From NCBI GenBank assembly GCA_016839945.1, contig JAEOTE010000006.1:1-9300 (forward strand): a DNA stretch of 9,300 nt, written 5' to 3'. The notes beneath the pieces were generated by a model. That model worked only from the letters and a program-made list of their open reading frames with translations, was not told where the DNA came from and made no database searches. The first letter of the stretch is position 1; every line of letters starts with the position of its first letter. This document shows positions 4,015 through 4,200 of this stretch, piece by piece. The translations under genes and the position numbers were made by a program. Source of the DNA: Candidatus Heimdallarchaeota archaeon. Lineage in GTDB: Archaea > Asgardarchaeota > Heimdallarchaeia > Heimdallarchaeales > Heimdallarchaeaceae.

Positions 4015-4024
4015 CCTAGTAAGG
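4015..4024 (+). other. Leader strand (cctagtaagg) of a perfect 10-bp leader/trailer helix; partner at 4185-4194
   Basis: The reverse complement of ccttactagg (4185-4194) is exactly cctagtaagg (4015-4024). The helix can extend by t4025-a4184 and a g4014.t4195 wobble. Confidence 0.7.
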
Positions 4025-4027
4025 TCA

Positions 4028-4056
4028 GACAACATCTAGTTGTGTGCTAGATGGTC
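4028..4056 (+). other. Extra stem-loop between the closing helix and 5S segment B: gac-aa-catctag-[ttgtgtg]-ctagatg-gtc
   Basis: Perfect 7-bp inverted repeat catctag (4033-4039) / ctagatg (4047-4053), plus gac (4028-30) / gtc (4054-56) across a 2-nt aa bulge. It has no counterpart in canonical 5S rRNA. Confidence 0.55.
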
Positions 4057-4059
4057 GGG

Positions 4060-4123
4060 AAAGTTAAGGCCTTCCACGTGTGGCTTTGTACTAAGTTCCG
4101 CGAGGGCTTGGGAACAGCCGTTC
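4060..4123 (+). rRNA. Segment B: equivalent of the 3' two-thirds of a 5S rRNA (loop B 3' side, helix II 3' strand, helix V, loop E, helix IV, loop D)
   Basis: aaagttaagg matches the archaeal GAAGUUAAG loop B motif. ccttccac is the helix II 3' strand with a bulged C. ggct (4082-4085) pairs with agcc (4116-4119) as helix V. ttgtact / gggaac matches the loop E GUAC / GGGAAC signature. aagttc (4093-4098) pairs with gggctt (4104-4109) as helix IV, with loop cgcga. The following gttc resembles the ..CCCGGUUCGCCGCC 3' end of the Haloarcula 5S as I recall it. Confidence 0.8.
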
Positions 4124-4141
4124 GCTGCGATGCGTCGCGGC
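4124..4141 (+). rRNA. Helix I equivalent closed into a hairpin: 6-bp stem gctgcg/cgcggc with 6-nt loop atgcgt
   Basis: Hand-paired: g4124-c4141, c4125-g4140, t4126.g4139, g4127-c4138, c4128-g4137, g4129-c4136; loop 4130-4135. In a normal 5S these two strands are the free 3' and 5' ends. An alternative register (4117-4120 with 4138-4141 plus 4123-4125 with 4132-4134) also yields a closed hairpin. Confidence 0.65.
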
Positions 4142-4184
4142 CATAGTGAAGGGGTAACACTCAGACTCATTCCGAACCTGAAAA
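4142..4184 (+). rRNA. Segment A: equivalent of the 5' third of a 5S rRNA (loop A, helix II 5' strand, loop B 5' side, helix III, loop C)
   Basis: GGCCAUAGUGAAGGGGUAACACUCAGACUCAUUCCGAACCUGA closely follows the archaeal 5S consensus GGCCAUAG-(helix II)-ACAC-CnnGA-CUCAUUCCGAAC-nnnG. Helix III is tcag (4161-4164) paired with ctga (4178-4181). Confidence 0.8.
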
Positions 4185-4194
4185 CCTTACTAGG
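4185..4194 (+). other. Trailer strand (ccttactagg) of the 10-bp leader/trailer helix; partner at 4015-4024
   Basis: See the partner feature. It is followed directly by the T6 run at 4195-4200. Confidence 0.7.
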
Positions 4195-4200
4195 TTTTTT
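4195..4200 (+). terminator. Oligo-T tract (T6), likely archaeal intrinsic termination signal for the 5S-like RNA
   Basis: tttttt lies directly after the trailer strand. Oligo-T tracts are the established archaeal RNAP termination signal. Confidence 0.5.

Follow-up and report, generated by a model that had tools for sequence, protein, structure and literature searches.

Circularly permuted transfer RNA (tRNA) genes are reportedly present in Thermofilum, in work by Chan et al. from 2011. In Cyanidioschyzon merolae such genes were found by Soma et al. (2007), as cited in Valach et al. (2014; PMC4267664), a paper that also covers the permuted mitochondrial 5S ribosomal RNA (rRNA) of brown algae and other stramenopiles, the Rfam family mtPerm-5S. 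Circularisation of a permuted signal recognition particle (SRP) RNA, dependent on a bulge-helix-bulge (BHB) motif, has been shown experimentally in Thermoproteus (T. tenax / T. uzoniensis; Plagens et al. 2015, PMC4731332). Among archaeal rRNAs, a permuted 23S rRNA is described from Pyrococcus furiosus (PMC7758197), and circular 23S rRNA from archaeal ribosomes in a study according to which circularisation plays no part in the processing of 5S rRNA (PMC12918454). Circular 5S species of Halobacterium and Sulfolobus are heterogeneous and have been interpreted as degradation products of collinear genes. Here we describe a 5S rRNA gene in a 9,300-nucleotide (nt) stretch of DNA from a Candidatus Heimdallarchaeota archaeon (contig JAEOTE010000006.1, positions 1 to 9,300; hereafter the window), which carries at 4062-4182 on the plus strand a complete 5S rRNA in permuted order. 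We put at roughly 0.7 the probability that this locus is a functional, circularly permuted 5S rRNA gene of a Heimdallarchaeia archaeon whose transcript would be BHB-processed to a circular 121-nt RNA. The full-text literature that we searched contains no report of a permuted archaeal 5S rRNA, and its sole permuted-5S paper is organellar; the search covered few subscription journals, and prior publication is possible.

A 5S rRNA gene in permuted order

Reading 5' to 3', the elements of the gene follow one another as loop B 3' side, helix II 3' strand, helices V and IV, capped helix I, loop A, helix II 5' strand and helix III. The parts, delimited by covariance models and covariation, are as follows.

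4062-4130, plus strand: 5S segment B (about 53-120 in canonical numbering), with the 3' side of loop B, AGUUAAG (AGUUAAGG), the 3' strand of helix II, helix V, GUAC...UGGGAAC of loop E, helix IV closed by a GCGA loop, and the 3' strand of helix I
4131-4134, plus strand: UGCG tetraloop capping helix I, in the place of the 5' and 3' ends of canonical 5S
4135-4182, plus strand: 5S segment A (about 1-52 in canonical numbering), with the 5' strand of helix I, CCAUAG of loop A, the 5' strand of helix II, the 5' side of loop B, and helix III with loop C (CAUUCCGAAC), to CCUGAA

Read directly from the letters, segment B is AAGUUAAGGCCUUCCACGUGUGGCUUUGUACUAAGUUCCGCGAGGGCUUGGGAACAGCCGUUCGCUGCGA (4061-4130) and segment A is GCGGCCAUAGUGAAGGGGUAACACUCAGACUCAUUCCGAACCUGA (3' end at 4181), and the two are linked by the seven base pairs of helix I (4124-4130 with 4135-4141). 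Once the order is allowed for, helices I-V and loops A-E are all present with the conserved motifs CCAUAG, CAUUCCGAAC, AAGUUAAG and GUAC...UGGGAA. An earlier note on this DNA, made from its letters alone, had described a 5S gene whose 3' two-thirds is encoded upstream of its 5' third. The order of segment B before segment A is confirmed both in the sequence and by a permuted covariance model, and the arrangement that the note gave for helix II holds; small details of register did not, since the core, which coincides with the homologous 5S core of related loci, is 4062-4182. The helix II pairs in the Rfam register are G4146-C4077, U4147-A4076, then A4149-U4073 through G4152-C4070; G4153 faces G4069 and does not pair with it in the window, and a G-U or G-C pair stands there in relatives. 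The region 4010-4200 (plus strand) is the sole sizeable G+C-rich island in the window, with a G+C content of 0.485 over 4001-4200 and 0.55 in the 5S core, against about 0.33 in the rest. A single match to the order-specific pattern TGGGAA..CCATAG..CAYYCCGAAC is present in the window, and none in 200 shuffles. An open reading frame (ORF) of 103 amino acids with a TTG start (4040-4351, plus strand) spans the 5S gene, and spurious ORFs of this kind appear among the called proteins of public metagenomes (P0001, P0002).

At the gathering score of Rfam model RF00001, 38 bits, the window has no 5S match, the sole Rfam report there being a tRNA-Ser(GCU), and none of 18 related loci has one either (19 archaeal stretches including the window). 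In E-value mode RF00001 reaches 22.8 bits over 4010-4133, with a true alignment limited to the B part, much as the earlier note had expected of standard annotation. This sub-threshold score is explained by gene order rather than by divergence, as two purpose-built models show. Both were trained on 16 canonical 5S genes, 15 bacterial plus one from Methanophagales (locus L070) and none from Asgard archaea: for R1 the sequences were cut five bases after CCGAAC and helix I was closed with TTCG, while R2 was left unpermuted. On the native window R1 gives a full-length match at 4062-4182 with 58.5 bits (E = 3.8e-14; second-best match in the window, 7.7 bits), against a partial match of 28.0 bits to segment A alone for R2. 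The rearrangement test that the earlier note had proposed was thus run in mirror form, with permuted canonical models on the native window, and came out as predicted. Over 32 archaeal loci, Asgard-labelled or unclassified, R1 scores 54.7-82.6 bits, always at full length, and R2 22.9-39; the canonical control L070 shows the reverse (R2 77.1 bits, R1 33.7). A sequence-only nhmmer profile scores 25.5 bits on the native sequence (model positions 5-49) and 36.0 on the rearranged one (positions 5-67, across the junction).

These 32 loci are part of 81 returned when species-representative genomes were scanned with the order-specific pattern, and every permuted 5S gene among the 81 came from archaea labelled Asgard or unclassified. 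Twenty-one have titles with Heimdallarchaeota or Heimdallarchaeum; others are from Jordarchaeia (L026), Baldrarchaeota (L047 and L061) and unclassified Asgard archaea (L029 and L059), and one, L075, is from a close relative labelled Thermoproteota. The rest of the 81 are bacterial 5S genes, chance coding matches and the canonical Methanophagales 5S gene. Bacterial hits (Massilia and others) were considered as permuted genes and rejected: they are either ordinary 5S genes whose upstream spacer happens to contain TGGGAA, or coding sequence that matches by chance. Sixteen further permuted 5S genes, on unlabelled contigs, came from a metagenome scan, for a total of 48 loci beyond the window. The closed Heimdallarchaeum genomes CP084166 (L027/L063) and CP084167 (L049/L039) have two permuted copies each, with nearly identical cores but differing leader-trailer designs within each genome. 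According to the authors of both genomes, prediction of a 5S gene was not possible (PMC8813620), probably because the gene is permuted. Over several kilobases the window is 89% identical to L030 (5.9 kb) and 85% to L045. The L030 contig (JBHLQZ010000003.1) is labelled Candidatus Thorarchaeota yet groups with the Heimdallarchaeota loci, and its label is probably wrong.

Relatives share not only the order but the fold, with the compensatory changes for which the earlier note had asked. In a MAFFT alignment of 27 Heimdall-type loci, the permuted-order 5S fold has 95.1% of cells paired, compared with 29-48% in slid registers, and 20 pairs are changed on both sides, compared with 11.2±1.9 in shuffles (0 of 500 shuffles reaching this). 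Among 39 more diverse cores the paired share is 93.4% of cells; compensatory cells number 122, where shuffles give 27.7, and the covariation score is 0.362, where shuffles give 0.158. Compensatory changes are present in every 5S helix, including helix II, whose strands stand in reversed gene order (four to five such pairs), and the two pairs of loop B are 100% paired in the 27 sequences. Helix I, shorter than that of canonical 5S, is capped by UGCG, UUCG or UACG on a helix of 7-8 base pairs (bp) in 35 of 39 sequences; exceptions are L075 (CACG), L025 (UAUG) and L029 (GUUA, on a longer stem). The stable, near-universal UNCG cap argues against a processing spacer and looks like a permanent closure.

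Leader, trailer and predicted processing

The permuted unit lies between a single conserved promoter motif and a single T-run, and its flanks contain two candidate cut sites on the 5' side, each with its own frame for the cut on the 3' side.

3973-3995, plus strand: promoter-like motif CCAATAGCAAAGATTAAAAATAA (like a B recognition element, BRE, and TATA box), at a distance of about 25 nt from the leader base where pairing begins
4015-4025, plus strand: outer stem, leader strand, pairing with 4184 or 4185 to 4194; 92% of cells paired, 7 of 8 pairs with compensatory changes
4025-4031, plus strand: site 1, UCAG (4025-4028) complementary to CUGA (4178-4181), then unpaired ACA (4029-4031); candidate 5' half of a bulge-helix-bulge/loop
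4033-4053, plus strand: leader hairpin, 7-bp stem CAUCUAG/CUAGAUG, loop UUGUGUG; most relatives have GGAUGCGUUCC
4056-4062, plus strand: site 2, CGGG (4056-4059) complementary to CCUG (4177-4180), then AAA (4060-4062); predicted cut between 4061 and 4062
4177-4184, plus strand: 3' half of the BHB, CCUG/CUGA plus AAA bulge; predicted cut between 4182 and 4183 (site 2 frame) or 4183 and 4184 (site 1 frame)
4184-4194, plus strand: outer stem, trailer strand, by covariation
4195-4200, plus strand: T6 run, likely an archaeal oligo-T terminator; most Heimdall-type loci have a T-rich run after the stem

Within the promoter region an A/T-rich, TATA-like box stands at about 3985-3994, and transcription would start near 4012-4016. 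The motif CCAATAGYAAAGATTAAAAA is kept at equal distance in most Heimdall-type loci, and in the Jord and Baldr types TTTATAT stands at a corresponding distance. The TATA-like box, the T6 and the G+C island on which the earlier note had based its view of an expressed gene are thus all there. The leader reads UUUUGCCUAGUAAGGUCAGACAA, then the 7-bp hairpin, then GUCGGGAAA up to the 5S core; the trailer, AACCUUACUAGG, is complementary to the leader and is followed by the T6. Right after the T-run stands ACGTTTAC (4201-4208, plus strand), which in most Heimdall-type loci is GGTTTTTTACGTTTAC and lies outside the predicted RNA.

To place cuts in such flanks, we calibrated a rule on the tRNA-His of L078 (1723-1820, minus strand), which has a 26-nt intron at 37/38 and shares its contig with a permuted 5S gene. 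Its intron has a textbook hBHBh' motif, GGGGA-CUGU-GG/A-AUGA ... UCAU-ACAG-UA/A-UCCCU (cuts marked by slashes), which gives for each strand a helix, a 4-nt central helix, a 3-nt bulge cut after its second nucleotide, and a helix. At loci L026, L047/L061 and L027/L049 the outer helix is contiguous, the central helix has 4 bp, and each of the two bulges is 3 nt long.

L026: leader CGCCAUGA-CGUG-AA/A-GUCAAG; trailer GAA-CACG-GA/U-UCAUGGCG; canonical geometry
L047: leader GGUGCGGCAUCC-CGUG-AA/A-GUCAAG; trailer CACG-GA/A-GGAUGCCGCACC; outer helix of 12 bp
L075 and L029: leader and trailer analogous; central helix of three pairs plus G·A

In relatives without the extra hairpin, ligation by this rule yields ...CCGAACACGGAAGUCAAG..., a canonical loop-B junction. 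For L026 and L047 the junction is ...ACGGA/AGUCAAG, with canonical 5S length and motif, and at all of these loci the predicted ends are those of the R1 match. In every case one side of the central helix is the 3' strand of helix III, which makes the BHB and the mature fold mutually exclusive. Loci of the L027/L049 type (with L090 and L098) have no site 1 and show a clean helix-bulge-helix, GUGGU-CAGG-AAA / CCUG-AAA-ACCAC, at site 2, where the cut rule again gives the exact canonical loop-B junction; the homologous hairpin lies upstream of the BHB and hence outside the predicted mature RNA.

From these observations we propose the following course. One transcript of about 185 nt, running from the BRE/TATA promoter to the T6, would carry positions about 53-120, the UNCG-capped helix I and positions about 1-52. 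Leader and trailer would pair, with the helix III 3' strand lent to the 4-bp central helix of the BHB. The tRNA-splicing endonuclease would cut both 3-nt bulges and RtcB ligase would join 4182 to 4062, recreating the loop-B junction ...CCGAACCUGAA/AGUUAAGG..., upon which helix III could re-form. The product would be a covalently closed 121-nt 5S rRNA of normal topology except for the capped helix I. Cleavage, ligation, circularity, incorporation into ribosomes and the 5' site used in the window's type are what we infer from motif geometry and from the precedent of Thermoproteus SRP RNA.

For the window's type, site 2 is the 5' site that this proposal assumes. Its four pairs with CCUG are intact in 27 of 27 sequences, one position being G-U in 14 and A-U in 13 (half of the relatives have CAGG), and it is homologous to the canonical BHB 5' half in L026, L047 and L027. 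Cuts between 4061 and 4062 and between 4182 and 4183 would give ...CCUGAA/AGUUAAGG, a canonical junction in a product of the same length as that of L026, with ends that match the homologous core. The L027/L049 paralogues, having a clean BHB at site 2 and no site 1, favour site 2, and the presence of both paralogue types in the same genomes (hairpin between site 1 and site 2 in one, upstream of a canonical BHB in the other) favours a common 121-nt product.

Several observations weigh against this proposal. The outer helix at site 2 is interrupted by the hairpin, with 58% of cells paired, so that site 2 would sit in a three-way junction and is not a canonical BHB in this type, and a second relaxed version competes with it: at site 1 a well-formed helix-bulge-helix half stands beside the covarying stem, where a cut would keep the 4033-4053 hairpin in the product. 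The site 1 fold is also the minimum-free-energy fold, at -70.1 against -66.2 kcal/mol. BHB formation needs helix III to be opened, and the central helices of L075 and L029 are imperfect. In metagenome contigs of the Joint Genome Institute (JGI), segment A followed by AAGTTAAG within 40 nt, as in a ligated junction or a canonical-order gene, was sought with 0 matches, and a protein-database search for a junction-spanning ORF found just two ORFs, both in genomic order. Finally, 5S is listed, without details, among the rRNAs of a Jordarchaeum metagenome-assembled genome (PMC9723677), a possible conflict that may reflect a canonical copy or a partial match.

The alternative that survives best, though we consider it unlikely, keeps the gene and the BHB processing but puts the cuts at site 1 (between 4030 and 4031, and between 4183 and 4184), giving a circle of about 153 nt that keeps the hairpin in loop B or loses it in a second excision. 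Site 1 continues the outer stem, which with the covarying extension 4023-4025 / 4184-4186 reaches 10-11 bp; its trailer bulge is exactly 3 nt, and its UCAG/CUGA central helix has CAG/CUG paired in 25 of the 25 sequences that carry the segment. The hairpin is 93% paired, with compensatory changes in three pairs, and its loop sequence is conserved, as would be expected of a retained functional element. Fold energies of -70.1, -66.2 and -67.8 kcal/mol are too close to choose between the sites. On the 5' side, four to five unpaired bases, variable in number, precede the hairpin, so that there is no strict 3-nt bulge. A cut at site 1 also gives no reason why CRGG should be invariant at site 2 and match CCUG by complementarity in all 27 sequences, and meets the L027, L049, L090 and L098 paralogues, which lack site 1 and hold their hairpin outside a canonical site-2 BHB in the same genomes as copies of the site-1 type. 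The two-step version, a site-1 circle from which the hairpin is then excised as an intron, was rejected; the second motif would lack canonical bulge lengths in most sequences.

Somewhat less probable is a permuted 5S rRNA that stays linear, its ends trimmed or its leader-trailer stem kept as a clamp, and is never ligated, as with the brown-algal mitochondrial 5S. Such molecules do exist in organelles (PMC4267664), helix II and the two fully paired loop-B pairs could hold the parts together without a covalent link, and the public assemblies scanned gave no ligated junction. What speaks for ligation is that exact BHB geometry recurs in several independently diverged designs, each giving a canonical junction length, and that BHB-cut ends are normally ligated by RtcB in archaea (PMC4731332).

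We think it improbable that the circle is an intermediate, re-opened in the helix I cap to yield an ordinary linear 5S rRNA as happens with permuted tRNA genes: the four-nucleotide cap offers neither a spacer nor a recognisable processing signal, and a helix I shorter than the canonical one is what would be expected where a loop replaces the ends. A decayed or rearranged pseudogene, or an assembly artefact, would agree with the failure at the Rfam gathering threshold but is effectively refuted, being excluded by recurrence of the identical arrangement in about 48 independent assemblies, among them the two closed Nanopore+Illumina genomes for which no 5S gene could be predicted, by compensatory changes in all helices, and by the conserved promoter and synteny.

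Two other ideas about the leader and the origin of the arrangement were tried and dropped. The hairpin region has no conserved C box, as a box C/D or K-turn reading would imply. For an origin by tandem duplication, the leader was compared with segment A (GCC-UAGU-AAGG...UCAGAC), of which it might be a decayed remnant, and the trailer with segment B; neither similarity is significant, being equalled in 192 and 314 of 2000 shuffles, respectively.

Neighbouring genes

The genes around the permuted 5S rRNA gene are ordinary in appearance, and some of them accompany it over considerable divergence: hypF-hypE and the tRNA-Ser upstream, and the flavodoxin gene downstream, stay beside it down to about 70% nucleotide identity.

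316-3725, minus strand: HypF and HypE, hydrogenase maturation
3806-3890, minus strand: tRNA-Ser(GCU) with long variable arm, divergent, about 120 nt upstream of the 5S leader
4234-4779, minus strand: flavodoxin-like protein
5292-5951, minus strand: RPA-like OB-fold/winged-helix protein
6049-7392, plus strand: MiaB-family radical-SAM methylthiotransferase
7639-9300, plus strand: GyrB-like protein, N-terminal 554 amino acids, identified by eye from the translation, running off the window

At most related loci a tRNA gene adjoins the permuted 5S gene. In the Baldrarchaeota locus L047, a tRNA gene of 124 nt (4443-4566, plus strand) has two insertions relative to the tRNA model, in the D-loop (about 20 nt) and in the anticodon loop (about 35 nt), which are probably two introns, one of them at a non-canonical position.

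Meaning and comparison with known systems

In cellular genomes, 5S rRNA is regarded as universal, near-invariant and easily annotated, an assumption that a permuted 5S gene in a major archaeal lineage breaks; standard annotation misses the gene. We give even odds to the wider claim that Heimdallarchaeia, Jordarchaeia and Baldrarchaeia share the same permutation point, have no collinear 5S gene at all, and run ribosomes with a circular 5S rRNA made by the tRNA-splicing machinery. If true, this would be the first case of a permuted 5S gene in any cellular lineage, and the first of a natural circular 5S rRNA that serves as the working molecule. No known group is more closely related to eukaryotes than Heimdallarchaeia, and the claim, if true, would bear on the form of the 5S gene in the archaeal ancestor of eukaryotes. 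On the practical side, the "high-quality" standard for metagenome-assembled genomes under Minimum Information about a Metagenome-Assembled Genome (MIMAG) requires a 5S gene, and Asgard genomes with a permuted one would be penalised under it; the permuted covariance model is a tool that recovers the gene at 54-83 bits. As to mechanism, repair by BHB endonuclease and ligase, known for tRNA and SRP RNA, would extend to ribosomal RNA, and the two-site leader may reflect ordered or alternative cleavage.

The archaeal 23S rRNAs (PMC7758197, PMC12918454) resemble the Asgard 5S in the BHB cleavage and circularisation that we predict for it, and there too the circular form may be in the ribosome. They differ in direction: from a collinear 23S gene comes an RNA that is permuted or circular, whereas for the Asgard 5S the gene is permuted and processing would restore collinearity. 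Permuted tRNA genes share inverted halves and a BHB at the transcript termini, and their RNA passes through a circle, as that of the Asgard 5S would; but RNase P and tRNase Z then open the tRNA circle at the acceptor ends, where the Asgard 5S has a UNCG tetraloop and no obvious opening signal.

The mtPerm-5S RNAs are likewise 5S molecules that depart from the standard 5'-to-3' domain order and are missed by standard models. In them, however, the alpha domain alone is rearranged, a terminal hairpin stands for helix I, the ends lie at the alpha/gamma junction, the order of beta then gamma is kept, and the molecule is linear. The Asgard 5S is interrupted in loop B, with helix III on one side of the break and helix II on the other; it keeps helix I under a cap, places gamma before beta, and has BHB motifs in its flanks. 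Membership in the mtPerm-5S type was considered and rejected on these grounds: helix I is retained and capped, gamma precedes beta, and the break stands between helix III and the loop-B 3' strand.

With the Thermoproteus SRP RNA the likeness goes further. Both are universal structured non-coding RNAs, missed by standard models, with the 3' part encoded before the 5' part; in both, leader and trailer form a BHB (in the window's type, two candidate versions of one) through which cutting by the splicing endonuclease and ligation lead, or would lead, to a circular functional RNA of restored topology. The RNA is another (SRP RNA as against 5S) and so is the lineage (Thermoproteales as against Asgard), and circle and cleavage, demonstrated by experiment in Thermoproteus, are things that we infer for the Asgard 5S. 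Unlike the SRP RNA, the window's type also has a conserved hairpin in its leader, and its central helix has a choice of two partners. The closest system in mechanism is thus the permuted SRP RNA, and the closest in molecule is the brown-algal mitochondrial 5S, a different, smaller and linear rearrangement; what appears to be new here, going by the literature searched, is a permuted gene for a ribosomal RNA, putatively repaired through a BHB, in several Asgard lineages and with a leader that offers two sites.

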